Positions 7,726-45,731 of a DNA stretch of 48,886 nt are shown here, in pieces. Both the position numbers and the translations under genes were made by a program. Every line of letters begins with the position of its first letter. Position 1 is the first letter of the stretch. The stretch comes from an archaeon (GTDB taxonomy: Archaea; Nanobdellota; Nanobdellia; Woesearchaeales; UBA9642), in the NCBI GenBank assembly GCA_043806035.1, contig JAZDHK010000039.1, forward strand, positions 1 to 48,886, written 5' to 3'. A model generated the notes under the pieces. The model was not told where the DNA came from. It worked only from the letters and a program-made list of their open reading frames with translations, and did no database searches.

Positions 7726-7785
7726 ATTTAAATACTTTTCTATTTTAACAACTTATTAGTGGTGACAAAACATAAGATTTATAAG
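7726..7785. promoter_or_regulatory. back-to-back TATA boxes with central ACT-N4-AGT palindrome
   Basis: Minus-strand TTTAAAT starting at 7732 and plus-strand TTTATAAG at 7778; ACTTATTAGT at 7751-7760 lies 18 and 17 bp from them. Confidence 0.6.
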
Positions 7786-7806
7786 CACAATCACACTTCT
7801 CGCAAC

Positions 7807-7920
7807 ATGGCACGCATCCATCTCATCGGCACCATCCACAATGCGTTCTCATCCAAGAAGCCTACGAAAACAACATCAACATCGATTTTAGCGTCTGTGA
7901 AAAAATCAACGTTTCTGTGA
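7807..7920 (+). pseudogene. gene remnant (MARIHLIGTIH..., TraB/GumN-like start)
   Basis: ATG ~29 bp after a TATA box; protein-like first 12 codons, then an out-of-frame protein-like piece (LIQEAYENNINIDF) and a duplicated TCTGTGAAAAA. Confidence 0.4.
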
Positions 7921-7964
7921 AAAATTAGGGGTCAATTTTGCACAAAGCCGCCAAATCCGCAAAA

Positions 7965-8011
7965 TATATAAATAAGTATCTTATCTCTACCTTGTTGATG
8001 TTAAATCAACA
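7965..8011 (+). promoter_or_regulatory. grpE-dnaK-dnaJ promoter with inverted repeat
   Basis: TATATAAA at 7965-7972; perfect IR TGTTGAT-N5-ATCAACA at 7993-8011. Confidence 0.55.
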
Positions 8012-8026
8012 GAATAAGGTGGGTGT

Positions 8027-8539
8027 ATGAAGGAACGCACAGAAAAAGAAAAAACTGAACAGGCAGAGCCATCGCCTCCTAACGAGAGCGAAGCAAAGAT
8101 TGCAGATTTGACAGACACGCTCAAGCGCCTCCAGGCAGAGTTCGACAATTACAGGAAAAGACAGGCAGCAGAACAAGACGTGCATGACAGAAAAGTCATG
8201 GCGAACCTGCTCAGGAAGCTCCTCCCTATAGTTGATAGCTTCCAGATGAGCATCAAGAGCCTCAACGACTCCTGCAAGCCAGAACACGAACAGTACAAGA
8301 AAGGCATAGAACTCCTGTACGCGCAGCTGTACGCATTCATGAAAGAGCAAGGAGTGCGAGAAATGGCAGTGCAGGCAGGCAAAGAACTTTTCGACCATAA
8401 CAAGCACGAAGTCCTCATGCTCCACGAGAGCGAGCTTCCAGAGCACACCATCATCGAAGTCTTCCAGACAGGATACTGGTATAATGATGAAGTCCTAAGG
8501 ACGGCAAAGGTCAAATGTGCGATGAAAAAGAACCAGTGA
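8027..8539 (+). CDS. grpE: nucleotide exchange factor GrpE
   Basis: [34 protein letters not shown]...VLRTAKV; directly before dnaK. Confidence 0.95.
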
Positions 8540-8549
8540 GGTTGGTAGT

Positions 8550-10466
8550 ATGGCAAAGATCATAGGTATAGATTTGGGAACGAGCAACAGCGCAGCATCG
8601 GTCTTAGAGGGTGGAAAGCCGCGAATAATCCCGAGTGCAGAAGGAACTACGGTGGCGGGAAAAGCATTCCCGAGCGTCGTCGCATTCCTCAAAGACGGCT
8701 CGCGAGTAGTAGGAGAGCCTGCGAGAAGGCAGGCGATAACGAATCCTGACGGCACCATCATGGCTGCCAAGAGAAAGATGGGCACTGCCCACAAGTACAA
8801 AATTCTTGGAAAGGACTACACGCCGCAGCAGATCTCTGCATTCCTCCTCCAAAAGATCAAGGCGGATGCAGAAGCGTTCCTCGGCGAAAAAGTCGAGAAG
8901 GCAGTCATCACCGTTCCCGCCTACTTTGACGACAATCAAAGACAAGCAACAAAGGACGCAGGACAGATTGCCGGACTTGACGTCATCAGAATCATCAACG
9001 AACCTACTGCTGCAGCGCTCGCGTACGGCCTCGACAAGCAGAGCAAGGAACAAAAGATTCTTGTCTTTGACCTTGGAGGGGGTACGTTGGACGTCACCAT
9101 CATGGAATTCGGCGATGGCGTTTTTGAGGTGAAGTCAACATCGGGAGACACGCAATTAGGGGGCACGGACATGGACAAGGCAGTCATCGACTTCTTGCTT
9201 GCCGAATTCAAGAAGCAGGAAAACGTCGATCTTGCCAAAGACATTACCGCCATGCAGCGCCTCAGAGAGGCTGCGGAGAAGGCGAAGATCGAACTCTCGA
9301 CAGTCATGGAAACAGACATCAACCTGCCTTATATTACTGCCACGAATGAAGGGCCGAAGCATCTCATGATGAAACTGACGCGTGCTAAGCTGGAGCAGCT
9401 CATCGATCCTGTCATCAGGCGGTGCAAGCACCCGCTTGAGCAGGCATTGTCGGATGCAGGACTCAAGCCAAGCAACGTAGACAAAGTAATACTTGTTGGC
9501 GGGCCGACGCGCATGCCCATAGTGCACAAGTTCGTGGAAACGACTCTGGGAAAGAAGGCCGAGCGCGGTGTTGATCCTATGGAATGTGTTGCCATGGGCG
9601 CTGCCATCCAAGGAGGGGTGCTCGCAGGAGATGTCAAGGATGTCCTTTTGCTTGACGTGACACCCTTGAGTCTTGGCATTGAGACACTTGGGGGCATTTT
9701 CACCAAGCTCATCGAGCGAAACACCACCGTCCCCACAAAAAAGAGTCAAATCTTCAGCACGGCTTCGGACAACCAGCCGTCAGTGACCATTCACGTGATG
9801 CAGGGTGAGAGAAGCATGGCCCAGGACAACAAGAGCCTGGGCAAGTTTGATCTGATGGGCATTCCTCCAGCGCCGAGAGGCATTCCGCAGATCGAGGTGA
9901 CATTCGACATTGATGCTAACGGCATCGTGCACGTCAAGGCAAAGGACCTGGGCACGGGCAAGGAGCAGAGCATCAAGATAACGGCAACTCAGAAGCTCTC
10001 TGACGAGGAGATCGAGCGCATGCGGAAAGAGGCGGAAAGCCACGCGGAAGAGGACAAGAAACGCAGGGACAACGTCGACATCATCAACCAGGCAGACAGT
10101 CTCGTGTACAATACCGAACGGCTTTTCGAGGAAGTCAAGGACAAGATAGACACGGCAAAGGTAGAAGACATCAAGAAAGAATTGGCAGAGCTCAAGGAAA
10201 TGCTGGAAAAGCCGGATAAGTACGAACAGGCAGAGCAGATACGCAAGAAGGTCGATGCGGTGAACAAGAAAGTGCAGGAATTAAGCACGGAACTCTACCA
10301 GAAAGTCTCTGAGCAGCAGGCGCAGCAAAATCAAGAAGCTGCAAAAGAGAGCAAAGATGACAGTGAGAACGTGGTCGATGCGGAATTCAAAGATAAACCC
10401 GACGAAGACAAGCATGACGAGAAAAAGCACGACGACAAGAAACATGACAAGCATAAGAAGAAGTGA
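8550..10466 (+). CDS. dnaK: chaperone DnaK (Hsp70)
   Basis: [51 protein letters not shown]. Confidence 0.99.
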
Positions 10467-10471
10467 AGGGC

Positions 10472-11548
10472 ATGAGCAAAGACTACTATGCCACACTCGG
10501 TTTGAGCAAGCATGCCACGCAGGAAGAGATCAAGGCTGCGTACAAGAAACTTGCAAAGCAATACCATCCTGACGTGAACAAAGACCACACGGCGACAGAG
10601 AAGTTCAAGGAAATCAACGAGGCCATGTCCGTCCTCTCCGATCCCAAGAAGAGGGAGCAGTATGACCGATTCGGCAGCGACTCCTTCAGGCACAACCAGC
10701 AGGGATTCGACAATTTCGACTTCAACGATGTCTTCGAGCAGTTCTTCGGCGAGGACATGGGCGGTTTTGGCTTCAACTTCAGCCAGAGGCAGCGCCGCGG
10801 CAAGGACATCGTCCATGATGTAACGCTCGACCTTGAAGAAACGGTTACAGGCAAGAAAGAGACGCTTTCTATCAGAAAGACCGAGCACTGCTCGCACTGC
10901 AACGGCGAGGGGGGAACGGGACTCAAGCAATGCAAGGCCTGCCATGGCAGAGGAGTCAGGGCCGTAACCCACAGGACCCCCTTTGGCTTAGTGCAGACGA
11001 CGGGCACATGCAGCGACTGCCACGGCAAGGGAGAGATTGCCGATGAGGAATGTTCCCACTGCAATGGCGAAGGTGTGCAGCACACGACGAAAAAGATCGA
11101 GGTAGAGATTCCTCCTGGCGTGAGTGATGACACGCGCGTACGGCTGGCAGGACAAGGGAATGAGATGCGAGGAGGCCCTGCAGGAGACTTGTACATCCGC
11201 ATGCATATCCGAGAGCATCCGCTTTTCGAACGGGAAGAGGATGACGTGTACATCGAGGCACCCATATCCTATTATCAGGCAGTCATGGGTGGAGAGATCG
11301 ACGTGCCCACATTGGATGGCAAGGCGACACTGAAAATCCCCGCAGGAACGCAACCAGGAACAATATTGCGGATGCGCGGCAAAGGCATCCCCCACCTCCA
11401 CCATACCGGCAGAGGCGATCAGAACGTGCGCATCACCATCAACGTGCCAGACAAGGTGAGCAAGAAGCAGAAAGAACTGCTCGTGGAACTCAACAAGTTG
11501 AGCAGCGAAAAAAACATATTCCAAAAAATACGGGGTGTGTTCAAGTAA
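10472..11548 (+). CDS. dnaJ: chaperone DnaJ
   Basis: J domain with HPD, G/F region, four CxxCxGxG repeats, C-terminal domain. Confidence 0.98.
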   Translation: MSKDYYATLGLSKHATQEEIKAAYKKLAKQYHPDVNKDHTATEKFKEINEAMSVLSDPKKREQYDRFGSDSFRHNQQGFDNFDFNDVFEQFFGEDMGGFGFNFSQRQRRGKDIVHDVTLDLEETVTGKKETLSIRKTEHCSHCNGEGGTGLKQCKACHGRGVRAVTHRTPFGLVQTTGTCSDCHGKGEIADEECSHCNGEGVQHTTKKIEVEIPPGVSDDTRVRLAGQGNEMRGGPAGDLYIRMHIREHPLFEREEDDVYIEAPISYYQAVMGGEIDVPTLDGKATLKIPAGTQPGTILRMRGKGIPHLHHTGRGDQNVRITINVPDKVSKKQKELLVELNKLSSEKNIFQKIRGVFK

Positions 11549-11655
11549 ACAGAGCGAGAGTGCGTCTGGCAAATGACAATCTTTATGAATATCCACGCAT
11601 CCGTACTTTAAAAACGGCAAAAATAGATATTGGCCATAATTTCGAGGGATACACC

Positions 11656-13521
11656 ATGGGCAAGAAAGGTAAGGGACTGTACAAATCTGGCGCAGGCAAA
11701 GTGAGTGCTGGCAAGCATGACGACAAGCCTGAGGAAAAGAAAGAGATCTTCGATCTTGTTTCGCAGAACATTCCTGATGAGCAGAAGGCTAAATTGAGCG
11801 AGCTCTCCGCGAAACTTGAGAAATTCAAGGAGAACGTGCTGGAAAAGTTCAATGAGTACGTCCTGGGCATCGCCCTGCTTCCCCCCAGCCAAGACGAGAA
11901 AGAAAAGCACAACATCAACGTCCTGGTGCTCATCGACGACAGCGACAGCCAGAAGATGACCAAGCTGGAACTGAAGGAGAAGCTGGCCAAGATCATCGAC
12001 GAGATGGCGAAGAGCATTGACAAGAACCTCGCTCCCGAAACCATCATCCTCACCGAACTGTGGCAGAACTGTTTCGATGCACGCTACGAACTCCTGCAGG
12101 GCATCGCCATGTCTGCATTCATTTATGACAAGGGCATGCTTTCTGCAATCAAGATCTGCGAAGTGCACAAGACCATGGTGCTCAAGAAATTCGAAAAATA
12201 CATTGTGAGTTACGTCCTTGCCGGGAGTTTCGTGCAAGGCAAGCCAAACCCGCACGACATCGACGTGTACATCGTCATTGATGATACGGATGTCAAGAAG
12301 ATGACCCGGGCGGAGCTCAAGGACAAGCTTCGTGCCATCATTATCGGCATGGGCATAGATGCGGGCAAGATGACGGGCATCGAAGGGAAGTTGCACATCC
12401 AAGTGTACATCCTGACGGATTTCTGGGAGAGTATGAAAGAGGCCCATCCTGTCATCCTCACCTTTCTCAGGGATGGCGTGCCATTCTATGATAGGGGCAT
12501 ATTCATGCCGTGGAAGCAGTTGCTTGCCATGGGCAGAGTCAAGCCAAGCCAGGAAAGCATCGACATGTTCATGCATACCGGCGACCAGATCCTTGAACGG
12601 GTGAAATTCAAGCTGCAGGAGATTGCGACGGAGGATATTTTCTACGCCACGTTGACGCCCATGCAGGCGGCCATCATGCTCATGGGCTTCCCGCCGCCAA
12701 CGCCGAGGGAGAGCATCCAGGTGGCGAAAGACCTCTTTGTCGAGAAGGAGAAATTGCTCGAGCAGGAATACGTGGACATTCTGGAGAAGATTGTGATCAA
12801 GACGAGAAAGGCTATGGAGTATGGTGATAAGAAGACCATTTCAGGCAAGGAAGTCGATGATCTTGTAGAGGATGCCAAGAAGTATCTCAAGCGGATCAAC
12901 GAATTGTTTAAGCAGATTCAGAAGCTCAAAGAAGAGGAAAATATCGTCCACACGTACGAGCACATCCTCACCATCGTACGTGACTTGCTGAAAGGGGAAG
13001 GTAACGAGAAGGTGTCTGACAAGGACATCTCCAAGGCGTTCGAGACGGAGATCATCCACAAAGGGCTCATCCCTGAAAAATTCCATAGAATCTTCAAGGA
13101 ATTAGTAAAAGCAAAGGCAGACTATGACCTGCACAAGCTCTCGAAGACGGATGTCAAGCTCGTCATCAAGGAGACGCATGAGCTCAGCAAGGTGCTCATC
13201 GAGTACATCCAGCGCAAGAGAAGCCAAGAGCTTGAACAGGCCAAGATCCGTGTCAAGTACCACGACAACAAGTATGGAGAGGTGCTCTTGTTAGGGGATG
13301 AGGCGTTCATCATCCATGACATCGAGACGCGTCAGGAGATCAGCCGGGCAAAGCTCACCAGCAATGGAGGTCTGAGCACCATTGCAAAGAGTTCGCTCGA
13401 GGAGATCGAGGAAGCCCTTGCCAATAAGAAGATTTCAGGCAAGACGTTCATCAAGGAGCCTATCTTCGAGGATCTCAAGCAGCTCTTCGGCAGCGATGTC
13501 GAGATACTCGTGCAGTGGTAG
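11656..13521 (+). CDS. tandem Pol-beta-family nucleotidyltransferase + HEPN-like protein
   Basis: Two internally repeated NTase units: degenerate INVLVLIDDSD and intact LAGS...HDIDVYIVIDD; then a HEPN-like helical region (FYATLTPMQAAIML...RKAMEY). Confidence 0.75.
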   Translation: MGKKGKGLYKSGAGKVSAGKHDDKPEEKKEIFDLVSQNIPDEQKAKLSELSAKLEKFKENVLEKFNEYVLGIALLPPSQDEKEKHNINVLVLIDDSDSQKMTKLELKEKLAKIIDEMAKSIDKNLAPETIILTELWQNCFDARYELLQGIAMSAFIYDKGMLSAIKICEVHKTMVLKKFEKYIVSYVLAGSFVQGKPNPHDIDVYIVIDDTDVKKMTRAELKDKLRAIIIGMGIDAGKMTGIEGKLHIQVYILTDFWESMKEAHPVILTFLRDGVPFYDRGIFMPWKQLLAMGRVKPSQESIDMFMHTGDQILERVKFKLQEIATEDIFYATLTPMQAAIMLMGFPPPTPRESIQVAKDLFVEKEKLLEQEYVDILEKIVIKTRKAMEYGDKKTISGKEVDDLVEDAKKYLKRINELFKQIQKLKEEENIVHTYEHILTIVRDLLKGEGNEKVSDKDISKAFETEIIHKGLIPEKFHRIFKELVKAKADYDLHKLSKTDVKLVIKETHELSKVLIEYIQRKRSQELEQAKIRVKYHDNKYGEVLLLGDEAFIIHDIETRQEISRAKLTSNGGLSTIAKSSLEEIEEALANKKISGKTFIKEPIFEDLKQLFGSDVEILVQW

Positions 13522-13630
13522 CCCGCTTGCCGAACAAAACACTTGTTTTTTTTCACTTTTAAGTAGTAAAAATATAGAAAGATTTAAATAGTACAGATGC
13601 TTTCTTTATCCATACACTCAGGTGATATTC

Positions 13631-14401
13631 ATGACTGACTTCGTCGAGATGATTACCAAAGCGGAAGAAACAATCCAGGCAAAATACAAAGAACTCTGGT
13701 TAGACCAAGATAATGCAGGCAGGCAATCCTACCTCGACTTCGAGGCACTGTTCAAGCTTACAGGTAAGATGCCAAATCCGGAAACTGTGAAGAAAGGGCT
13801 CGTCATGCGGCTCAACATGCTCACTGATACCTATCATCCTCTTGAAAACAAGGTAGACAAGCAAGGAAAGCCAGGAGAGGATCTTGACACGAATGCTGCA
13901 AGCCTCATCATACGAGTGGCAAAAGGCATCAACGACATGGGACTGCACTGTGAAGTGGACCCGGACACTATGAATCGTGCATATAACAAACTACTCATTG
14001 ACTACACCTCACAAAAAACACAATTTGCTGGGCTCAAGGCAGCACACCATCTCGCGCAGCTTACCGGCATACCCGTTTCTGCAGAAGTATTGGCATCAGG
14101 CATCAGTCATGCACTATCTACCAGCGATGAAACAAAGAACATAGCATTCATCGCACAAGACACTGCATCATTCCTGAATGATCCTGCCGCGCTTGAAACC
14201 ATCTACACGGGCATCGCCAAAAAATGCACTGCGGAAGAACTGCTCGCCTACGAGAAAAGTGCACAAAAATACGCAACGGACAATACGAACGTGTCCATGA
14301 CGCAAGATGTTGTCGAAAAAGTCCTTGCGAGCTACGTGGAAAGGAACAGATATGCTGATGCACTCAAGATAGCAACGGCAAAAAAGATGCTCCCGCAATA
14401 G
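13631..14401 (+). CDS. hypothetical protein (helical)
   Basis: 256-aa ORF with GGTGA RBS and a TATA box at 13583. Confidence 0.75.
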   Translation: MTDFVEMITKAEETIQAKYKELWLDQDNAGRQSYLDFEALFKLTGKMPNPETVKKGLVMRLNMLTDTYHPLENKVDKQGKPGEDLDTNAASLIIRVAKGINDMGLHCEVDPDTMNRAYNKLLIDYTSQKTQFAGLKAAHHLAQLTGIPVSAEVLASGISHALSTSDETKNIAFIAQDTASFLNDPAALETIYTGIAKKCTAEELLAYEKSAQKYATDNTNVSMTQDVVEKVLASYVERNRYADALKIATAKKMLPQ

Positions 14402-14453
14402 TTTTTCACAACTTTTTTAAAGCACGCATTCTTCCCTTTTTTTAGGTGATGTG

Positions 14454-14891
14454 ATGAAGACCGGCATGCAGATACACGAGGTCATGACCAATACGCCCGT
14501 TACCGTGAGCCCTACAGCGACCGTCCAAGAGACTGCGCTGCTCATGACCAAGAAAAATGTGAACAGCGTTCTCGTCGTCAAGAACGACCAAATTCTAGGC
14601 ATTGTTACTGACGAAGACATGGTGCGACGGATCGTCACCCAAAGCAGCCCCGCAACACAAGAACCCATATCAGCAATCATGGTCAAGGATCCCTTCATCA
14701 TCTCGCCAGGACAGGATCTCATGGACGCCATCGTGCTCATGGGCGATAACGACATCAGGCATTTGCCCGTCGTTGACAAGAAAAAGCTTGTTGGCTTCAT
14801 CACCATGCGAGACATTCTGAAGATGGAGCCAGAACTGGTGGAACTGCTCTCCCGAGACACATTACAGCGAGAAGAGGAACAAAATTTATAA
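14454..14891 (+). CDS. CBS-pair domain protein
   Basis: VM..PVTVSP, LGIVTDED, IRHLPVV, LVGFITMRDIL. Confidence 0.92.
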   Translation: MKTGMQIHEVMTNTPVTVSPTATVQETALLMTKKNVNSVLVVKNDQILGIVTDEDMVRRIVTQSSPATQEPISAIMVKDPFIISPGQDLMDAIVLMGDNDIRHLPVVDKKKLVGFITMRDILKMEPELVELLSRDTLQREEEQNL

Positions 14892-14914
14892 ACATTCTGC
14901 GAGTTGAGGACGCC

Positions 14915-15607
14915 ATGAATCAGCCGCACCACGTTGCTGTCATACTTGATGGAAATAGGCGGTTTGCGAAACGGCTCATGGCCGAGCCGTGGAAGGGGCA
15001 CGAGTGGGGCTATGAGAAAGTAAAGAAACTCATGGACTGGTGTAAGGAATGCAACATCCCCGAACTCACCCTCTACGCCTTCTCCTTACAGAACTTTCAT
15101 CGGCCAAAGAATGAGTTCGAGTATCTCATGCGTCTCGCCGAACGCATGTGCGATGAGGTTCTCGCTCAGGAAAAGACAACCAACGACCCTCGCGTTTCCT
15201 TCATCGGACGCACGCATCTGCTCAACCCCGCTCTGCAAGAGAAGATGCGTAACGTAGAAACGACAACAGAACAGAATGCAGGCATGCAGGTCAACATCTG
15301 CTTCGCCTATGGCGGCAGGGAAGAGATCACTGATGCGGTCAAGGCCATCGCTGAAAAAATACGTGCGGGCACGCTTTCTCCTGACGACGTCGGAGAAGAG
15401 CTCATCAAGCAACACCTGCAGCTCCCTCGAGAGCCGGATCTCATTATCAGGACGGGAGGCGAAAGACGAACGAGCAATTTTCTCATGTGGCAGAGCTCGT
15501 ATGCCGAGCTATACTTTACTGATGCGCTCTGGCCAGAATTCGAGAAAGAGCAATTCTTGGCGGCACTCGAAGACTTCGAGCAGAGGAAGCGCAGGTTCGG
15601 ACAATAA
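14915..15607 (+). CDS. uppS: cis-prenyltransferase (polyprenyl diphosphate synthase)
   Basis: PHHVAVILDGNRR, LTLYAFS, YGGREEI, PDLIIRTGGERRTSNFLMWQ, RRFG. Confidence 0.96.
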   Translation: MNQPHHVAVILDGNRRFAKRLMAEPWKGHEWGYEKVKKLMDWCKECNIPELTLYAFSLQNFHRPKNEFEYLMRLAERMCDEVLAQEKTTNDPRVSFIGRTHLLNPALQEKMRNVETTTEQNAGMQVNICFAYGGREEITDAVKAIAEKIRAGTLSPDDVGEELIKQHLQLPREPDLIIRTGGERRTSNFLMWQSSYAELYFTDALWPEFEKEQFLAALEDFEQRKRRFGQ

Positions 15608-37764: not shown

Positions 37765-39063
37765 TTATCGTGTTCCTTTTCTTCCCCAGTACTCGAGCGC
37801 TATCTTGAGTTCAGGACTGGTTTTTGCCGCCTCGGCAAGATCGATGCCTTGCAAATATGCCTCGACGGCTTCGCGCATTGCCTTTGCTCCTGCAAAGCTT
37901 CCCTGCGGATGTCCGTGGATTCCTCCGCCTATCTGCAGCATGATGTTGCTGCCGAGTTTGTTCATGACCTTGTCCACGAGCAATGGATGCAGTCCTCCCG
38001 AACTGCACGGAAAGAGGGGTTTTGTGCCATACCATTTCTGGGGAAGCATGTGCAGTGTATCTTGGGCAGGAACGTCTTCGAGCGTCGTCTGGTCACGCAA
38101 ATGCAGGGTCTCTTCTTCGCTGCCAACGAGTTTTCCTACATTTGCCGTTCCTATGTGCAAGGTGTCCACGCCGAGCAGCCGGACGCATTTCGCGACGCAG
38201 TTCATGCTGAAACCGTGATTTTTGTTTCTGGTCATGGCACCGTGCATCGCCCGATGCGCGTGCAGGGCGAGCTTGTAATCGCCGCAGATCTCTCTCATGC
38301 TGGCGATGGCAGCCCATCCTGTCGTGATGATATCGATCATGGCGAATTCATTGCCGTAATTTCTCACTATCCGTGCTCGTTTCTCCATCTCCCTAACAGT
38401 GCCCGCAGTTATGTTGATAAGATAGCTTTTTTTCTCGCCCGTCTTTTTCTCTATCTGGTCGCGCAGCTTGATGCAGGATTTCACTCTGTCCTCGAACTTG
38501 TTGAAGTCCTGGCCTGCAAGGTTCTCGTCATCTTTCAAGAGATCAAGACCTCCTTCCCAGACTTCTCTGCCCACTTCAGTATGCTCTGCAGTGGTCATGC
38601 CGACTTTTGGTTTTGCGACGCTGAGCATGATGGGTCGTTTTGGGACTTTCATGAATTGCCGTATGCCCTCTCGCCCAAATTTTGGGCCAGGGAATGCCTT
38701 GACGTGCTTCTCCGTGAATTGTATATCCTCCAGTCTAAGAGAGTCGACTGCCTTCATGCCGAAAACATTGCCTGCGATGCTGGCGAGGATTTGCGGTATG
38801 TTCCCGTACTCGAAATGGTCTTCAGGATAGGCTATCTTTATCCATTCTCCTTTCGCCTCGAAGACCCACGCACGCACTTTCTCGACGGTTGCGTAATGCT
38901 TGTTGAGAATAGGGCTCCACGTGCCGACGCTGGATTCTGCAGCAACCGCTCCCCACGCCCGTTTCTTGGATGACCATCGGGGAACTTTGACCCTGAATGA
39001 GGCTATGACATCATGCTCACCAGGCATTCTTGAGAAATCAACGAACTGCTCGTAATCAGCCAT
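37765..39063 (-). CDS. rbcL: form III RuBisCO large subunit
   Basis: AAESSVGTW, KPKVG, LKDDEN (carbamylated Lys-Asp-Glu), HAHRAMH, loop-6 GKL, SSGG, GGGIHGHP; catalytic residues intact. Confidence 0.95.
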   Translation of the reverse strand: MADYEQFVDFSRMPGEHDVIASFRVKVPRWSSKKRAWGAVAAESSVGTWSPILNKHYATVEKVRAWVFEAKGEWIKIAYPEDHFEYGNIPQILASIAGNVFGMKAVDSLRLEDIQFTEKHVKAFPGPKFGREGIRQFMKVPKRPIMLSVAKPKVGMTTAEHTEVGREVWEGGLDLLKDDENLAGQDFNKFEDRVKSCIKLRDQIEKKTGEKKSYLINITAGTVREMEKRARIVRNYGNEFAMIDIITTGWAAIASMREICGDYKLALHAHRAMHGAMTRNKNHGFSMNCVAKCVRLLGVDTLHIGTANVGKLVGSEEETLHLRDQTTLEDVPAQDTLHMLPQKWYGTKPLFPCSSGGLHPLLVDKVMNKLGSNIMLQIGGGIHGHPQGSFAGAKAMREAVEAYLQGIDLAEAAKTSPELKIALEYWGRKGTR

Positions 39064-39120
39064 GTTACACACCTCTTTCCCTTTTTAGGAAAAAGGTTAT
39101 TTATAAACGTTGTGCGTCAT

Positions 39121-39257
39121 GAGGCTTCATCCTGAGAGTCTCGTGCACCCCCGAGCGAAGCAGTCAATTAACACAGCTATTGCGTGAAAGTTCGTATGCG
39201 TGCACCTGCTTACACTGCTGTGCGGAGCGGAATGCGAAAGAAATTCAGGATGAAGCC
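39121..39257. mobile_element. MITE-like element, copy B
   Basis: TIR GGCTTCATCCTGA (39123-39135) / TCAGGATGAAGCC (39245-39257); 7-bp direct repeat GCGTCAT at 39114-39120 and 39258-39264. Confidence 0.85.
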
Positions 39258-39276
39258 GCGTCATAATCATCTCGCA

Positions 39277-40011
39277 TCAGGATTTTCTTGCGAGAGCCAG
39301 ATGATACGTTGCCAGCCTGTTTATGCCAGGAACCGCATCAAGATACAAGAACTGCAAACGTTCGCTTGTCTGTGGCGAGACAACATAGAACGTCTTTTCC
39401 TTATGAATACGAATAGGGCTGATGACACCGACATAGGCAAAATGCTCAATGGAGAATCCTGCATCGTGCAGCATGCCCGTGAATTCTTTTTTCGTGTACG
39501 GCTGAAAAATATCACGTCCTAACTCCTGCTGGCCAAACAGAGATTTCACTCGTCTGCGCAGGCTATGCGCGTTATCGGCATCAATGATAAGCAAGCCATC
39601 CTTGCGCAGAACACGATGGAATTCCTCCAGCGCCTTTCTCGGAGAGGGATAATGCACCAATGCCTCGAGACACACGATTGTGGACATGCTCTCGTCAGAG
39701 AAACTCAGCTGTTCAGCATCTTCAATGCAGAACGACGCAGCCGGAGCTTGCGTTCTCGCGAGAGCCAGCATCTGTTCGGAAATGTCGCTCGCAATGTATT
39801 CTTGTGACAAAGGAGAGAGCTGTGCGGTTATTCTTCCTTTGCCGCATGACACCTCGAGGCAAGGATCTTGCGCATATCTTTGGAACCAGTCACGAACGAT
39901 CCGTTCTTCTCCACGGTAGATGTGCGCATAATCATCTTCTGTAGGATTCCACCAACGGGCAACAGTGTCCTTGCCTCTGAAATAGTTTTTCACGAATTGC
40001 ACATCCTTCAT
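39277..40011 (-). CDS. class I SAM-dependent methyltransferase
   Basis: LEVSCGKG, SDISEQML, EDAEQLSF, HRVLRKDG; ATGA overlap with the upstream gene. Confidence 0.9.
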   Translation of the reverse strand: MKDVQFVKNYFRGKDTVARWWNPTEDDYAHIYRGEERIVRDWFQRYAQDPCLEVSCGKGRITAQLSPLSQEYIASDISEQMLALARTQAPAASFCIEDAEQLSFSDESMSTIVCLEALVHYPSPRKALEEFHRVLRKDGLLIIDADNAHSLRRRVKSLFGQQELGRDIFQPYTKKEFTGMLHDAGFSIEHFAYVGVISPIRIHKEKTFYVVSPQTSERLQFLYLDAVPGINRLATYHLALARKS

Positions 40012-40874
40012 GTTCCCCACTCGCAGTTATTACAGATGAAAGAGAGGTCTGTGCTGTTGCGTATCTTGTCCCTGATAGTCGTATACTGTTCTCCCCTCCA
40101 GATCTGCTCGATGGATGCCGTGCACAAATCTCCTAAACGATAACGCCTAAACCAGTCCATGCAACACAGCACGACCTCGCCCGTGCTCAGGATGTGCAGC
40201 CAATTGTCCTGCCGGTCATACTTGCAGCCCGTTATCGTGCTCTTGGAAGGGGACGGGTCGATGATGCCGCCCCGGCTCACTTTTGCATAGGAAGAAACCT
40301 CTATGCCCCGTTCTCCCCAGAACTGCCTATCCTCCTCCGGATGGTCTGACCCGACGAGAATGATCCTGTACCTTCCCCTGCCGTTCGTGGCACGTGCTAG
40401 GTCTATAAACTCCAGGACATTGCGCAGCGTCCGGCCGTAGGACAATCCCGTTCTTCCTTCATACTCCTCTTTTTTCCAGGAAGAAAAGTTGATCTTCACC
40501 TCATCGACCCGGACAAGAGATGAGAGTAGCAGTTCTGCCTTCTCCCGCGTCAGCAAACTTGCATTGGTGGCCACATCGATATAGGCATCAGGAAGGACAT
40601 CCCTGATCGCGAAAAGACGCGAGAAGAAGCTTACATCCGCCAAGGGCTCATTATTCATGTATGGCGCGACAAGCAACGGTTGAAAGTCGCGCAGCTGCTC
40701 GAGAATACTGGCAAACAGGGCATCAGGCATGCGCGATTGAGGAAATAATTTTGAGGTTATCTCGTAAGGACAACAGGAACAATGGCCATTGCAGTACGAG
40801 ACAGTCTCTATCTGGACGGCACGAGGATAGTCCTTGTCCCAGGGCAGTGCGAGCACGTCATCGACCGTTCTCAT
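40008..40874 (-). CDS. radical SAM protein with SPASM/twitch domain
   Basis: CNGHCSCC motif, NEPL, ATNAS; C-terminal GC...GEVVLCCMD...LGD...IW...CNNC. Confidence 0.92.
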   Translation of the reverse strand: MRTVDDVLALPWDKDYPRAVQIETVSYCNGHCSCCPYEITSKLFPQSRMPDALFASILEQLRDFQPLLVAPYMNNEPLADVSFFSRLFAIRDVLPDAYIDVATNASLLTREKAELLLSSLVRVDEVKINFSSWKKEEYEGRTGLSYGRTLRNVLEFIDLARATNGRGRYRIILVGSDHPEEDRQFWGERGIEVSSYAKVSRGGIIDPSPSKSTITGCKYDRQDNWLHILSTGEVVLCCMDWFRRYRLGDLCTASIEQIWRGEQYTTIRDKIRNSTDLSFICNNCEWGT

Positions 40875-41458
40875 AGTACACCCCTGTTCGTCAGCTCCTG
40901 CTCGATGGTCGTCACGACATCCGCAAGAGCGAGCTTTGTCGTATCCACTGCAAGAACGCGTTGTCCTTCCAATGACCAGGTGATCTCCCGCTCGAGGCGC
41001 TCGAATTGCTCGGGATTATTAAGAATGAGTTTGTCGAACGCTGAATACGCATTGCGCGCGGTGCTTCTCTGTATTGCTTCCTCGATGCCACAGGAAAGTC
41101 GCACAACAAGCAGCGGCTGGATAAAGTGTCGACGCAAGTCTACTGTATAATGGATAGACTGTTCCTTATTGAGGAATCTTCCGTACGCCACGGTGCTCAT
41201 CCAGAAGCGATCCTGGATGAAAAGTTCGTCACGAGGACGTGCATCGTCCTGGTAACGATCGATAAGATAGGCGAGCGTATACTGTGTCTCTCGCTGCAGG
41301 TCATCTGCAGGAGGAGGCAGAGCCAATGCCTGCTTATGTATCACGCCCGTATTGTGCCTGACTTGTTGGCCGTTCTCTAGCAGGTGCTGATAGAGCAATG
41401 TTGTTGTCGAGCTTTTGCCCGCATAGTCATGACCTTCCAAGGAGATAATCCGCGTCAT
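40871..41458 (-). CDS. thymidylate-kinase/CMPK2-like nucleoside monophosphate kinase
   Basis: IISLEGHDYAGKSS P-loop, DRFWMSTVAY, lid R...R; ATGA overlap. Confidence 0.85.
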   Translation of the reverse strand: MTRIISLEGHDYAGKSSTTTLLYQHLLENGQQVRHNTGVIHKQALALPPPADDLQRETQYTLAYLIDRYQDDARPRDELFIQDRFWMSTVAYGRFLNKEQSIHYTVDLRRHFIQPLLVVRLSCGIEEAIQRSTARNAYSAFDKLILNNPEQFERLEREITWSLEGQRVLAVDTTKLALADVVTTIEQELTNRGVL

Positions 41459-42024
41459 TTTTTCCTCAACAATAGGCAACGATGGTTGAAGGCGTCCATC
41501 CAGTCCTGCTCGAAATAAAACAGGCAAAAGTCCTCCTGGAGTGCAGCCGAGTTATACTTCGTGTGCGGTATTCCTTTTTCAGTTCCTACTTGCGGAATAA
41601 ACGTGTAAGGATTAATCCAGCGAGCATCGTCGGGAACGTAGGTGGTGAAATTGACAAAGAAAAGCCCTTCCGGTTTGCAAATGCGATGCACCTCGTTTGC
41701 CACACAACGCACCAATTGCCGTGCTGCGTGATAGATTGACTGTATGGCGATAATGCCATCGAAATAGTTGTCAGGATAGGGCAATGCTTCATACATGTTG
41801 TGCTGCACGAGCATCGCTCCTATCTTTGCCGATGCGTGTATCGCCACGGCAGAGCTATCGAGCCCGTGTGTTTCAAAACCTCGCGTGAGCATGGGCAACA
41901 AATGCCTACCCGTTCCGCAGCCAAGATCGAGCAGTCGTCCCGTGCCTACTTTTTCCAGAAAAGTTTCGAGGTATTCATGCGGGACAGCCAGCGGCGTTGT
42001 CTCGTTAAACTGGTCCCAGGTCAC
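41455..42024 (-). CDS. class I SAM-dependent methyltransferase
   Basis: LLDLGCGTGRH, GLDSS, LPYPDNYFD, HRICKPEG; GTGA overlap. Confidence 0.9.
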   Translation of the reverse strand: MTWDQFNETTPLAVPHEYLETFLEKVGTGRLLDLGCGTGRHLLPMLTRGFETHGLDSSAVAIHASAKIGAMLVQHNMYEALPYPDNYFDGIIAIQSIYHAARQLVRCVANEVHRICKPEGLFFVNFTTYVPDDARWINPYTFIPQVGTEKGIPHTKYNSAALQEDFCLFYFEQDWMDAFNHRCLLLRKK

Positions 42025-42488
42025 GTTGCACGCTCCGGGTAGGCAAATCTGCCCAGATGAACGGGGCATTGTTTGAACGATTCTTGCAAGTCACTCAGAA
42101 GACGGAGCGCCAATTGCCTGGGATGAAATTCAAGAGAGGAAAGTTTCGCCGCATCGACAAATTTGACGTCTTTGAGTCGGGAGACAGGACCATCTTCCGG
42201 GTCATATCCAACGCGCAATGTTCCTCCCATTCGTTCGCCAATAAGCACGATATCTATGGCTTCCTCATCCGCAGTATAGAGCTCTTTGAAATAGCCCATC
42301 GTAATGATGCGTACGTCAAGGTTCGTTTCCTCTTTGACTTCACGTATGGCTGCATCGTAGATGGATTCTCCCGGTTCGAGACCTCCTCCGGGAAGCACGT
42401 AACTACAACCACGGTCGTTCTGCATCTTCACCACAAGCACTTGCGTTCCCTCGAAAAGCAAGACCGAAACACGAATACGCCTTAACAT
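42021..42488 (-). CDS. NUDIX hydrolase
   Basis: Nudix box GGGLEPGESIYDAAIREVKEETNL. Confidence 0.93.
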   Translation of the reverse strand: MLRRIRVSVLLFEGTQVLVVKMQNDRGCSYVLPGGGLEPGESIYDAAIREVKEETNLDVRIITMGYFKELYTADEEAIDIVLIGERMGGTLRVGYDPEDGPVSRLKDVKFVDAAKLSSLEFHPRQLALRLLSDLQESFKQCPVHLGRFAYPERAT

Positions 42489-43606
42489 GTTCTCACCTCA
42501 AATGCGATGGGCACATAAATTGTGGAGAGATAGGATTCGTGCACGAATTGAGTCTCGTGTAAGGGAACAAAGGAGACTTGTTTTCTTTCAGAAGGATCAA
42601 GAAAACAGTAGGGGTCATGGCTGCTGGAGAAGAGATACCGATCCGTATCGTCGCCGCCGCCACAATGAGCGACATTGCAGCACGCTTTGCATTTTCCACC
42701 AGGAGCATACGCGGGAGAAGGAAGTGCAAGGATGTCTTTCAAACGCATATGAAACACGTTGCCCTTCACGGCATCAGTGAAAATATTCGACACCACTCCC
42801 CCGTCAGATTTTATTCTGAATGAGAGCTTGCCATAGGGAGTTCCGGGCACAACTCCCTTGCCCACGATAAGTGTCCGGAACACGGGATCAGAGACAGTAT
42901 ATTGTCTTGAAGCATTCGTAACGCTCGCAAGGAACAGGAATGCTTCTCGCATCTCTTCAGGCGTGCAAGCAAGATAACTCACATCCATGACCTCATCAAG
43001 CCCAGTTACGTCTGCAGAGAAGCGAGTCAGGTCGTTCTTCGTCGGATGGAATCTGTTGAGCCGCCACATGTCAACGTTCAGCGATTTTGCCAGCACATAG
43101 AGCTGGGGGAGATCACGATAGTTCTGGTGCATGATGCACGTCACCATTTCCGTCTTTACTTCACCTGAGCTGACGAGTTCTTCGAGGGCAGCTACCGCCT
43201 CAGCGAATGCTCCAGCTCTTCTTCTGTTATCGGAGTGTCGGTCGTCAGGATAATCGATGGAGACGCCAATATCGTTGAAAAGACGCAAATGACCACGCAA
43301 AATCTTCATTTTCGATCCATTCGTCACGAGCGCCACTTTGATGCCCGCATCATAAAGCATGTGCACGATATCGATGAAATGCGGATGGAGAGGTGGTTCT
43401 CCCCCGCCAAGATTGACTCGGGTAACGTGTGCTTCGATAAGTTGTGGCAGGAGTTGCTTAAACTGGTCGAATGAGATGGATTTCACTCCGTAATGCGTTT
43501 TTCTCCAGAATATTTTTCTGCCGATGTAGCAGTGCTCACAGGCCATGTTACACGCTTCAGTCAATGAGATGCCTGCAGTGTGTTCATCTGCATCTTCCAT
43601 CGTCAT
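42482..43606 (-). CDS. radical SAM protein (PqqE/MftC-like core) with degenerate SPASM domain
   Basis: CNMACEHC, LGGGEP, VTNG, GVSID; C-terminal CKAC...CGGGD...DPYC, while the first SPASM Cys positions read GTPYG/VVSN. Confidence 0.9.
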   Translation of the reverse strand: MTMEDADEHTAGISLTEACNMACEHCYIGRKIFWRKTHYGVKSISFDQFKQLLPQLIEAHVTRVNLGGGEPPLHPHFIDIVHMLYDAGIKVALVTNGSKMKILRGHLRLFNDIGVSIDYPDDRHSDNRRRAGAFAEAVAALEELVSSGEVKTEMVTCIMHQNYRDLPQLYVLAKSLNVDMWRLNRFHPTKNDLTRFSADVTGLDEVMDVSYLACTPEEMREAFLFLASVTNASRQYTVSDPVFRTLIVGKGVVPGTPYGKLSFRIKSDGGVVSNIFTDAVKGNVFHMRLKDILALPSPAYAPGGKCKACCNVAHCGGGDDTDRYLFSSSHDPYCFLDPSERKQVSFVPLHETQFVHESYLSTIYVPIAFEVRTC

Positions 43607-44496
43607 GTTTTCAGCCTCTTCGTGTCGTCCAGTCTTTTCCAGGAGTATTCATGAACGTGTCGCATGATCAAGAAATAGGCGCGCGCACCGTGATACAATG
43701 TTCGTTCAAGAAGGAAATAGGGGATGTCTTTCGGAGGAATGCCTGCCCAGTCGAGTTTTGTTTTCATGACTTCTCGAAGCGGGAGGAATTCGGGATTGTT
43801 GGCATAGAGCTGATCGAGATCGCTCCATATTCTTGACCATTTGTGCCACCACGAGCGGATGCTCCGCACGGCCTGGTAGTGGACATTTGCGTCCAGTCGT
43901 GCTGCAATTGCTGTCGGACCATACTGTTGTAGTATGTGGTGGCTCAGGAAGGTATCATCGCCAAGGGCACCAGGAAAGGTCGGGGCGAGCGTTGTAAAAA
44001 CTTCTTTGCGTACCGAATAAATCCTGCCATGCAGGAATGGCTTCTGTTTTTTGTTTCCGTGTTTTGCGATTTCGATGCCAGGATGGAGCATGCGGGCATT
44101 GATGACCTTGTACAGGAAAGATTCATGTTCATAGGGTAGGGGCGTTCCCGTTACCGCCTGGATAGATGGCGTGTAGGTCTCAAGTAGCCTGGAGAAGCAG
44201 TCTTTCTCAACAAGTGCATCTGCATCAGTAAAGATGAATGTGTCTGCAGGCGAGGATTGCACAATAGCGTTAATCGCCGCAGGCTTCCCGTGCGCACTTT
44301 CTATGATTTTCAGGAAAGGGATAGTGTCTGCATAGTGTTCTGCGATGCTTCGTCCATTATCGGTTGTGCCGTTGAAACAAAGCAGGATGTCACAGGGAGA
44401 AGAAATGCGCGATGCACTTGCGATAATGGTATCTAACGACTGCCGAAGCGTTGTTTCCTCGTTATGCACGGGAACGCCGATTGTGACATACGTCAT
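43603..44496 (-). CDS. GT2/GT-A glycosyltransferase
   Basis: IGVPVHNEE, GKPAAIN, FTDAD (DxD), GDDTFLS. Confidence 0.9.
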   Translation of the reverse strand: MTYVTIGVPVHNEETTLRQSLDTIIASASRISSPCDILLCFNGTTDNGRSIAEHYADTIPFLKIIESAHGKPAAINAIVQSSPADTFIFTDADALVEKDCFSRLLETYTPSIQAVTGTPLPYEHESFLYKVINARMLHPGIEIAKHGNKKQKPFLHGRIYSVRKEVFTTLAPTFPGALGDDTFLSHHILQQYGPTAIAARLDANVHYQAVRSIRSWWHKWSRIWSDLDQLYANNPEFLPLREVMKTKLDWAGIPPKDIPYFLLERTLYHGARAYFLIMRHVHEYSWKRLDDTKRLKT

Positions 44497-44557: not shown

Positions 44558-45082
44558 CTATCCGCGACGGAGCATCGTCAATATTTTCTCGAATTCTTTC
44601 GCCTGCTGGACAGCATCATCTAATGCATTGTGCGGCTGTTTTCTCACATCTTTGACACCGATGTCATGCAGTCTTGCCTTGACGTTTCTCATGACTCCTC
44701 TATAGAAAGAACTCATGTCCTCGCCGCTGTGCCCGAAAGGGTTCCTGCCGAGGAAGTTGTCGAAATACCATGTCGTGAACATGCCGTCGAACTTTATTGG
44801 TGCAGCCGCTTCTACCGGTCTGTATCCTTCTGTTACTCGTTCGACCCATGCTGCATAGTCTGCCATTGCTTGTTCTGGGCTCGTGCCTTCCTCTTCGAGG
44901 ACGTCAAGAACGTATTCGGGATGGAAGAGTTTGCTTTCTGGATTGTAGAAAGAGATCATCTTGCGTTTTTGGAGGCAGTGGAGGCCGAGGCTTCCTATTC
45001 TCATCGCTTTAGGGAGGAAGTTTCTCGAGATAGGCATGAATTCAACATAGAACTGCTCTGCGGTGTTGCCGACGACGCATGC
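44558..45082 (-). pseudogene. DEDDh 3'-5' exoribonuclease (Rv2179c-like), N-terminal ExoI motif missing
   Basis: ACVVG...FYVE, FD..F..WYF, NPFGHS..D, HNALDDA present; upstream in-frame sequence is AT-rich and lacks D-x-E and a plausible start. Confidence 0.65.
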
Positions 45083-45160
45083 ATTGGGGAATGCCCTATT
45101 TTTGTTGTATGAATCTAATTCAAATTCGAAATGTGCATAAAAAAAATATTCGTTGATAGC

Positions 45161-45731
45161 ATGACCTATCCAATAATCCTCGTCCAGTATGCAGACAGGC
45201 ACCTAGATAAACGGACACAGAGGAACATTGCCAAAGCGATTCATAAGAACAAAGATTCTATCGATGCACTTTTTTGTGAGAACATCACGGCGACAGATGT
45301 ACCTATATACGTAAGCGAGATAGCATCTCAACTAACTCATCCAGATTATCTTCTCATGCTCAACACGCCAATTCCCATCTATGGAAGCGAAAATAAACTC
45401 TTGCATAATATGCACACTCAATTGCTCGTACGCTTGCATGAACTCAAAGAGCGCGGAGAAGATCCTCTTATAGGTCCAATTCTTCAAGCACAAGCAGCTC
45501 TCACCCTGAAGCAACGCAACGGCAGCAATGCTCAAGCATATTGAAAAAATATGCTCAGCACAAGGGTACAGAACTGCAGGGTTGGTGCTCGGTTCAGCCC
45601 ATCGTGCAGATATGAAAGAGCGAGCCTCCAGACAAGGCATGCAGTTTCGTTATGTCAACACCGTAAGTCTCTTTCCCAAGAATCATAGCGAGGACATTCT
45701 CAGAACATTGGCTGGACGCAACAGAACCTAA
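45161..45731 (+). pseudogene. frameshifted hypothetical gene (TraB/GumN-like RN..M / VLGSAH motifs)
   Basis: ORFs 45161-45544 and 45528-45731 fuse to ...LKQRNAAMLKHIEK...LVLGSAH if one G at 45521 is removed. Confidence 0.6.

Follow-up and report, generated by a model that had tools for sequence, protein, structure and literature searches.

A conserved glycosyltransferase, radical SAM, NUDIX and kinase gene cassette in DPANN archaea, a candidate pathway to a modified nucleotide

Results

Organization of the cassette

In the genome of a woesearchaeal archaeon (Woesearchaeales, UBA9642; assembly GCA_043806035.1, 1.5 Mb, 93.7% complete) we analysed a stretch of 48,886 nucleotides (nt), that is, positions 1 to 48,886 of contig JAZDHK010000039.1, hereafter the window. 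Seven consecutive genes on its minus strand form a compact cassette (Table 1). In operon order, they encode a family 2 glycosyltransferase (GT2), a radical S-adenosylmethionine (SAM) enzyme (rSAM1), a NUDIX hydrolase, a class I SAM methyltransferase (MT1), a nucleoside monophosphate (NMP) kinase of the thymidylate kinase (Tmk) fold, a second radical SAM enzyme (rSAM2) and a second methyltransferase (MT2). These seven domain calls had been made in an initial annotation of the sequence, and all seven proteins scored above the Pfam gathering score. Each belongs to a well-known superfamily, yet none passes a curated family-level test, as the NCBIfam equivalog cut-offs were reached by none of the seven.

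The initial annotation had also described every junction as overlapping, five by 4 bp and one by 7 bp. Reading of the sequence together with a script gave the same picture: the six junctions are ATGA, ATGTTAA, GTGA, ATGA, ATGA and ATGA, corresponding to overlaps of 4, 7, 4, 4, 4 and 4 nt. Alternative longer starts exist for MT1 (ATG at 42069, with a 48-nt overlap), the kinase (TTG at 41527) and MT2 (GTG at 40020), and all junctions overlap whichever of these starts is chosen. Since the genes overlap, and are bordered by a 61-nt gap with an A/T-rich stretch before GT2 and by about 200 nt between MT2 and the next gene, the seven look like a single transcription unit.

None of the seven proteins contains a predicted transmembrane helix (maximal Kyte-Doolittle hydropathy of a 19-mer, 1.34), and the surroundings of the cassettes share no conserved small open reading frame (ORF). 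Where small ORFs did match between loci, they were either antisense to the GT2 start or came from one pair of loci with 100% identity in all upstream small ORFs. This agrees with the earlier statement that transporter, flippase and precursor peptide are missing. A short ORF just past MT2 (Table 1) is not conserved. The GC content of the cassette is 0.504, versus 0.495 for the remaining window, and its tetranucleotide distance is 0.160, versus 0.110–0.159 in other 5.2-kb windows. Thus, composition gives no clear foreign signal.

Table 1. Genes of the cassette and neighbouring features in the window
Feature	Position	Strand	Length (amino acids)	Remarks
GT2 glycosyltransferase	43603..44496	minus	297	operon gene 1, core gene
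rSAM1, radical SAM enzyme 1	42482..43606	minus	374	C-terminal 4-Cys SPASM/twitch-type domain; core gene
NUDIX hydrolase	42021..42488	minus	155	small, MutT/NudI-like; core gene
MT1, class I SAM methyltransferase	41455..42024	minus	189	from GTG at 42024; lineage-specific insertion
Tmk-fold NMP kinase	40871..41458	minus	195	non-housekeeping; core gene
rSAM2, radical SAM enzyme 2	40008..40874	minus	288	BtrN-like twitch/SPASM; accessory tailoring gene
MT2, class I SAM methyltransferase	39277..40011	minus	244	accessory tailoring gene, last in operon
Short ORF	39127..39270		47	just past MT2
RuBisCO large-chain homologue	37765..39072	minus		about 200 nt past the cassette, same strand
Exonuclease-like ORF	44558..45202	minus	214	61 nt upstream of GT2, same strand; without Pfam match
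Phage-integrase-family gene	48025..48792	plus		Pfam 103.9 bits; about 3.5 kb from the cassette

A conserved four-gene core

A profile search with rSAM1 through one genome each of 185,579 species yielded 36 loci, nearly all labelled DPANN archaea, the closest relatives being labelled Woesearchaeota, Pacearchaeota, Nanoarchaeota and similar. Seven loci (L027–L033, the close loci) carry an rSAM1 of 48–64% identity, and their gene content was determined by tblastn. GT2 lay directly upstream of rSAM1 in all seven, NUDIX was likewise present in all seven, and the kinase was found in six (the contig of L028 ends just after NUDIX). rSAM2 was detected in four and MT2 in two (L029 and L032); in L030 and L031, another radical SAM gene and another methyltransferase gene occupy the place of rSAM2 and MT2. 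No MT1 homologue was detected in any of the seven, and in L027 the NUDIX and kinase genes abut without MT1 between them. Because the same gene set recurs in every locus with a close rSAM1 relative, the arrangement goes beyond chance, and the concern that the homologues might never co-occur is dispelled.

When metagenomes were scanned with the GT2 profile, eight loci had a GT2 of at least 40% identity. Seven of them have an adjoining rSAM1, and the eighth ends at GT2. Four of the eight probably stem from the same populations as genome loci, since their tblastn statistics are identical. The GT2 and rSAM1 trees are congruent, with the same three well-supported clades, and those of NUDIX and kinase agree with them in their resolved parts. 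From these presence counts and the agreement of the trees, the conserved core consists of GT2, rSAM1, kinase and NUDIX; the tail of radical SAM and methyltransferase genes is variable, and the MT1 insertion is peculiar to this genome. The proposal of a seven-gene pathway unit therefore stands in so far as the cassette is conserved and self-contained, but the conserved unit comprises four genes.

The cassette is rare. Full-length relatives of rSAM1 were present in 2 of 40 near relatives, both of a distant type (see below), and among 400 other genomes of the phylum seven had rSAM1 matches (two close, five distant). A word-indexed search of 5.8 billion protein clusters returned 18 proteins for rSAM1 (E ≤1e-20) and 26 for rSAM2 (E ≤1e-10, 16 of them at ≥46% identity); the word-indexed homologue search with the kinase gave one relative only. 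An exhaustive profile search with GT2 gave about ten representatives of orthologues; beyond these, the matches fall off sharply to general GT2 proteins.

We also encountered decayed copies. One chimeric ORF (L065:5934-6695) joins the front half of rSAM1 to the tail of MT2, and in another protein (P0059) the front half of GT2 is fused to a SPASM tail. These are two independent deletion chimeras, which argues that the cassette is dispensable. L065 and L028 have the same upstream ORFs at 100% identity, which suggests that a single population harbours intact as well as decayed copies.

Enzymes of the core

rSAM1 reached 71.8 bits on Pfam Radical_SAM. Across 19 sequences, Cys23 and Cys26 of its CxxxCxxC motif are invariant and Cys19 is nearly so; the GGGE motif and four further cysteines (C306, C309, C315 and C334) are invariant throughout, and the protein ends with a conserved VHExYLxTxYxP tail. 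Pfam recorded only Radical_SAM and Fer4_12 on the window copy, and SPASM on several orthologues. By these features, rSAM1 belongs to the radical SAM SPASM/twitch group. Many basic residues are invariant as well (H124, R128, R182, R185, K305 and H356), which would fit an anionic substrate.

An AlphaFold2 (AF2) model of rSAM1 (pLDDT 87.9) was compared with solved structures. Ordered by VIA-align Z, its neighbours were anSME (22.7), SuiB (22.4), SkfB (20.8), BlsE (20.0), viperins (about 19) and MoaA (18.6). Foldseek placed BlsE (7vob) first by E-value (5e-14, 22% identity over 315 columns), and in a profile search of the PDB, SkfB (83 bits) was followed by BlsE as second-best (66 bits), with viperins at 27–31 bits. 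Since Z is similar across anSME, SuiB, BlsE, viperins and MoaA, the fold does not point to a nucleotide substrate. Two specific identities were rejected, namely BlsE equivalog (TIGR04466, 60.3 bits versus a cut-off of 400) and MftC (69.5 versus 265).

GT2 scored 62.7 bits on PF00535 (cut-off 23.3) and, with its DxD motif, is a member of the GT2 family. The NGTTD, DxD (D91/D93) and GDD motifs and a Trp-rich SWWxKWxRxW helix are invariant in all seven orthologues aligned. In its Atlas model, GT2 is similar to the catalytic domain of GT2 enzymes of the PgaC/chitin-synthase type (TM 0.84), lacking their membrane part.

The kinase reached 39.2 bits on PF02223 (Thymidylate_kin, cut-off 27) and 48 bits on the TIGR00041 equivalog (cut-off 83.25), and so is not a Tmk orthologue by the latter test. 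The initial annotation had left room for it being the genome's only housekeeping Tmk, and this is not the case: a second, housekeeping Tmk is encoded on contig 5 of the same genome (105.4 bits on PF02223 against 37.8). The AF2 model of the cassette kinase (pLDDT 89) supports a genuine Tmk fold, as does its membership of PF02223; the first 25 solved neighbours listed (ranks 1–27) are all thymidylate kinases (TMq 0.60–0.70). P-loop, DR motif and LID arginine are invariant in an alignment of Tmk-like proteins. A DRFWMST motif, initially likened to CMPK2-type kinases, is indeed present in the kinase, but the housekeeping Tmk reads DRSYWST at the same place. Because the DR is invariant in all 13 Tmk-like proteins aligned, including the housekeeping Tmk, the motif is general to the Tmk family. 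All cassette kinases aligned have in common a deletion of the REPGG loop of housekeeping Tmk. As this loop contacts the NMP in Tmk, its loss would suggest a different phosphate acceptor. On phrog_761, a phage Tmk family, the kinase scored 57 bits, more than on Pfam Tmk (39 bits), and it weakly matched VakA of PADLOC (19.9 bits).

NUDIX is a member of its family by score (61.4 bits on PF00293 versus a cut-off of 21.1) and by an intact Nudix box, GGGLEPGESIYDAAIREVKEET. The best NCBIfam equivalog was NudI (30 bits versus 95), and the best solved relatives are of MutT/NUDIX, 8-oxo-dGTPase and NudI types.

Accessory enzymes

rSAM2 was matched by Pfam SPASM (44.9 bits, cut-off 21.5) and Radical_SAM (33.7 bits). 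Its CxxxCxxC motif and C237, C238, C281 and C284 are invariant in 14 sequences, placing it, too, in the SPASM/twitch group. The sole solved sequence relative is BtrN (42.8 bits, in two stretches). Both methyltransferases matched Methyltransf_11, MT1 with 55.3 and MT2 with 76.3 bits, and the solved relatives of MT2 are generic small-molecule methyltransferases.

The nearest relative of MT1 that we found (32% identity) is the methyltransferase part of a fusion with an APH kinase. It is encoded in a long operon of a same-family relative (L026, G011 contig 17, 6092-16771), which also contains an rSAM1-like gene and a further gene for a radical SAM enzyme, an unknown gene, genes for a PfkB kinase and for two B12-binding radical SAM enzymes, TatD and a split transketolase.

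Distant relatives, fusions and a second operon

The remaining rSAM1 relatives are distant (about 35% identity; L034–L062, 29 loci) and come from DPANN archaea and a few other metagenome-assembled genomes. A Tmk-like kinase lies alongside in 24 of the 29. These distant cassettes consist of SPASM radical SAM genes, two or three in tandem, and the Tmk-like kinase gene after them; 18 of the 29 have a divergent two-domain AsnC/Lrp-type regulator. Further genes found in variants of this cassette encode an MTAP/purine nucleoside phosphorylase, an amidohydrolase of nucleobase-deaminase type, a B12 radical SAM enzyme or a MutT-like NUDIX protein. No glycosyltransferase was found among the distant loci examined. 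Judging from these loci, where the kinase so regularly accompanies rSAM1, the pairing of the rSAM1 family with a Tmk-like kinase is evidently older and wider than its GT2-led version. A tetrapyrrole (Ahb/NirJ) assignment of the distant loci was rejected, the two-domain protein scoring 81–87 bits on Lrp/AsnC versus 27–29 on AhbA/B.

Fusion proteins were surveyed by Pfam scans of 20 of the 150 best GT2-profile matches, picked by odd length or closeness. One joins GT2 to a Tmk-like domain, two join NUDIX to GT2 and three join GT2 to a HAD phosphatase. In the first, the Tmk-like part aligns to the cassette kinases with a probability of 98.4%, and the GT2 part is a full-length relative (aligned residues 4–286, E 2e-22). 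Atlas holds a 60-member NUDIX-GT2 cluster from ultra-small bacteria.

The same genome carries a second coupled operon of nucleotide type, on the minus strand of contig 29 (about 7166-15354; L014:1166-9354). Its genes encode a NUDIX protein, a GTP-cyclohydrolase-II-like protein, a radical SAM enzyme of 278 amino acids, a Tmk-like kinase, a PRA-isomerase-like protein, an unknown protein of 442 amino acids, an arylformamidase-like cyclase, an adenine phosphoribosyltransferase, a HAD nucleotidase and an unknown protein of 478 amino acids. The best family match of this radical SAM enzyme is the prokaryotic viperin (107.9 bits, cut-off 180; 109 bits on pVip of PADLOC). By gene content, the operon looks like a purine-remodelling pathway.

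Genomic context

Besides the cassette, the window encodes eIF2-gamma, the ribosomal proteins S19e and L31e, a LonB-type protease and the RuBisCO large-chain homologue, a gene content that identifies its owner as archaeal. The flanks of five long loci are wholly different from each other, and none is a glycan locus: RuBisCO and the exonuclease-like ORF in the window, RPA and YdjM in L027, a type I methylase, RadC, NYN and GluRS in L031, a divergent two-domain AsnC-type regulator, nucleotidyltransferases and extra NUDIX genes in L032, and PIN and MazE-like proteins with an ABC-2 transporter in L033. STT3 and five NTP_transferase matches (sugar nucleotidyltransferases) of the genome all lie on contigs other than that of the cassette. 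That is, the cassettes do not sit in ordinary surface-glycosylation loci, a setting that the initial annotation had considered.

Among 50 flanking proteins, PADLOC gave one strong match, the type I methylase of L031 (about 5 kb from the cassette), and weak candidate-family matches in L032. A defence role, also put forward at first, thus finds no consistent support in neighbouring genes. The exonuclease-like ORF of the window matched 'Effector Exonuclease' of PADLOC (86.7 bits) and has an HxxxxD-type motif near its C-terminus; by tblastn it lies beside none of the other cassettes.

Neither the rSAM1 nor the GT2 profile found a relative on viral contigs. In tblastn searches against phage and plasmid records, rSAM1 gave partial core matches only (a Pelagibacter phage hypothetical protein and haloarchaeal mftC), PHROGs gave generic matches only, and no convincing flanking repeats were found at the cassette. 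In comparison with four relatives of the same family, S19e-L31e alone has retained synteny, and hence no insertion site is shown. The integrase gene is not an obvious boundary of the cassette, because the S19e and L31e genes lie between the two.

Discussion

We propose that the cassette encodes soluble enzymes that make a nucleoside or nucleotide analogue which is glycosylated, radical-tailored and, in this genome, also methylated, and put the probability of this reading at roughly 45%. The core would turn an ordinary nucleotide or nucleoside into the analogue: kinase and NUDIX would set the phosphorylation state of a nucleotide intermediate, GT2 would transfer a hexose from a nucleoside diphosphate (NDP)-sugar onto it, and rSAM1 would remodel a sugar ring. 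NUDIX may in addition hydrolyse the triphosphate form and so protect the producer. As extra decoration in this genome, the BtrN-like rSAM2 could oxidise a sugar hydroxyl, and MT1 and MT2 could methylate. We infer what class of substrate is used, in which order the steps follow and what biological role the product has, possibly that of an antimetabolite, an antiviral or a signal. The proposal is supported by the conserved unit, the congruent trees, the gene fusions, the distant rSAM-kinase pairs, with MTAP, deaminase and NUDIX genes in their variants and no glycosyltransferase in the loci examined, and the true Tmk fold, and further by the separate housekeeping Tmk, the solubility of all proteins, the variable non-glycan flanks, the basic residues of rSAM1 and the precedents of thmABC and BlsE described below.

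Several observations weigh against it. The GT2 fold is nearest to catalytic domains of polysaccharide synthases, and rSAM1 is by Z about equally near to peptide-modifying SPASM enzymes, BlsE, viperins and MoaA. In the one GT2-kinase fusion, the DR motif of the Tmk-like domain is replaced, and the NUDIX-GT2 and GT2-HAD fusions would fit the handling of sugar phosphates or NDP-sugars equally well. The MTAP and deaminase genes of distant cassettes could simply serve to salvage the 5'-deoxyadenosine that radical SAM enzymes release as a by-product. Kinase and NUDIX of the window sit on long branches (1.58 and 1.23, versus orthologue medians of 0.58 and 0.42), which could mean relaxed constraint; both keep intact catalytic motifs, and only here does MT1 sit between their genes. 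Finally, the substrate, product and activities proposed for the cassette genes are predictions from sequences and models.

The main rival explanation is sugar or glycan tailoring. The radical SAM enzymes and methyltransferases would then modify an NDP-sugar or glycoside, which GT2 moves to a glycan, a lipid-linked intermediate or a small acceptor, and the task of kinase and NUDIX would be confined to recycling or trimming of the carrier nucleotide (NMP to NDP, NDP-sugar hydrolysis). The outcome would be a strain-variable decoration of a surface or solute. The GT2 model, with its PgaC/chitin-synthase-type neighbours and retained Trp-rich, acceptor-site-like helix, speaks for this, as do the action of BtrN, the sole solved relative of rSAM2, on an aminocyclitol and the GT2-HAD and NUDIX-GT2 fusions. 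STT3 and the five NTP_transferase matches indicate that NDP-sugars and protein glycosylation exist in this genome. However, these genes sit on other contigs, and no flippase, polyprenyl-phosphate transferase, nucleotidyltransferase or other glycosyltransferase was found in or beside the cassettes examined. All seven proteins are soluble, the flanks are unrelated between loci, and the rSAM1-kinase pair persists in the distant loci, where it does without a glycosyltransferase in those examined. We regard sugar tailoring as possible but doubtful.

Phage hypermodification pathways combine a nucleoside triphosphate (NTP) pyrophosphatase, a dedicated NMP kinase, a glycosyltransferase and methyltransferases, and the enzyme set of the cassette parallels this combination. 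In a T4-like scheme for nucleic acids, NUDIX would remove the canonical (d)NTP. The NMP would be altered by a methyltransferase or radical SAM enzyme and then rephosphorylated by the kinase, to be incorporated, and GT2 would glycosylate the polymer. The higher score of the kinase on phrog_761 agrees with such a scheme. Against it stand the viral, phage and plasmid searches, which gave no relative of rSAM1 or GT2 on viral contigs and partial core matches of rSAM1 elsewhere, and the cassette contains no polymerase, transglycosylase, DNA-binding or thymidylate-synthase-like gene. To our knowledge, the GT2 fold also differs from that of the DNA glucosyltransferases known so far. We consider hypermodification unlikely.

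The initial annotation had drawn a parallel to viperin. If the cassette were a true antiviral system of the viperin type, rSAM1 would act on an NTP and dehydrate it to a chain terminator resembling 3'-deoxy-3',4'-didehydro-NTP (ddhNTP), with the neighbouring kinase supplying it. Linkage of viperins and kinases is known (10.1101/2023.09.13.557418), the kinase of the cassette weakly matches VakA, and one close locus, L031, has its type I methylase nearby. rSAM1 itself reached 81–83 bits on the pVip profiles of PADLOC, but the matches are confined to profile positions 5–178 of 257 and 9–183 of 262, that is, to the shared radical SAM core. On the NCBIfam viperin model NF038283 it scored 70 bits versus a cut-off of 180, again with the core alone matching, and we rejected it as a viperin. 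It has an extra 4-Cys auxiliary-cluster domain, its PDB profile scores for viperins lie far below those for SkfB and BlsE, and the L031 methylase is the only strong defence match in the flanks. The parallel thus holds for the logic only, and a viperin-type system is very improbable.

Least likely of all is maturation of a ribosomally synthesized and post-translationally modified peptide (RiPP), with both radical SAM enzymes crosslinking and GT2 glycosylating a ribosomal peptide as in sactipeptides, glycocins and mycofactocin: the top Z neighbours of rSAM1 are peptide- or protein-modifying SPASM enzymes (anSME, SuiB, SkfB, CteB), its distant relatives reach 156–180 bits on MftC (cut-off 265) and GT2 faintly matches MftF-like models, but the cassettes have no conserved small ORF next to them, the Cys motif of rSAM1 begins at residue 19 and leaves no room for an N-terminal peptide-recognition domain, none of the seven proteins has a PqqD-like match at E ≤0.01, and kinase and NUDIX would stay unexplained.

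DPANN archaea are thought to live on host-made compounds and to have almost no secondary metabolism. If the nucleotide-analogue reading is true, such a compact route, with seven enzymes leading to a new analogue of a nucleoside or nucleotide, would be unexpected for them; it can be tested by expression. A bolder version, which we hold to be rather doubtful, is that DPANN archaea carry private, horizontally shuffled radical SAM/kinase/NUDIX cassettes and that the GT2-led one makes a glycosylated, methylated nucleotide antimetabolite against host, competitors or viruses, with NUDIX as safeguard of the producer. Were this true, it would be the first natural-product-like nucleoside pathway in DPANN and would involve new radical SAM chemistry on a nucleotide sugar. 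If sugar tailoring should apply instead, the cassette would still define a new sugar-tailoring module. In any case, it brings two uncharacterised radical SAM families of about 16 orthologue clusters each and a soluble synthase-like GT2. It is also part of a wider, undescribed theme of radical SAM enzyme, Tmk-like kinase and NUDIX in ultra-small archaea and bacteria, of which one solved member would give a handle on many.

Relation to known systems

The cassette is real, rare and conserved, and what is new is the combination, within a known kind of radical-SAM clusters that tailor nucleosides or nucleotides. No description of a GT2, radical SAM, kinase and NUDIX cassette was found in the literature, subscription-only papers and supplements lying outside the search.

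Mycofactocin loci resemble the cassette in joining a SPASM radical SAM enzyme (MftC), a GT2 (MftF) and a methyltransferase (MftM). However, the MftC score of rSAM1 falls short as given above, MftF was matched with 18.9 bits versus 280, and no MftA- or MftB-like gene is present. rSAM2 and BtrN (the butirosin 2-deoxy-scyllo-inosamine dehydrogenase, 4m7t) have the short twitch architecture in common, but their similarity is low and the cassette has no aminoglycoside genes.

In pVip/VakA and RSAD2-CMPK2, too, a radical SAM enzyme is found near a kinase of the NMP-kinase superfamily, and the products of those systems are nucleotide analogues. According to a survey, a kinase lies within three genes of 12% of bacterial and 5% of archaeal viperins (10.1101/2023.09.13.557418). 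The Tmk-fold kinase three genes downstream of rSAM1 matches this arrangement, whereas the score and the C-terminal coverage of rSAM1 do not match viperins. Viperin systems have no counterpart of GT2, NUDIX, rSAM2 and the methyltransferases, and rSAM1 differs by its auxiliary Fe-S domain.

In blasticidin S biosynthesis, BlsD (cytosylglucuronic acid, CGA, synthase) joins a sugar to CMP-derived cytosine before the radical SAM decarboxylase BlsE acts (PMC3715490). This resembles the proposed route, in which a twitch-type radical SAM enzyme would likewise remodel a sugar already placed on a moiety of nucleotide origin. For rSAM1, BlsE comes first by Foldseek and second among the sequence matches in the PDB, yet by Z it ranks below anSME and SuiB. 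The passages of that source on the early steps of the Bls pathway mention no kinase or NUDIX.

A further precedent is thmABC of Photorhabdus asymbiotica, where a radical SAM enzyme (thmA), a nucleoside kinase (thmB) and a nucleoside triphosphatase conferring self-resistance (thmC) make 4'-thiothymidine (PMC12691670). It is a bacterial, not an archaeal, system and lacks a GT2, a second radical SAM enzyme and methyltransferases. In that publication, thmB is an AbmG-type nucleoside kinase with no stated Tmk fold and thmC is never called Nudix. By description, thmABC has the outline of the cassette: its radical SAM, kinase and triphosphatase genes are compact and inherited together within variable flanks, and their product is a nucleoside antimetabolite.

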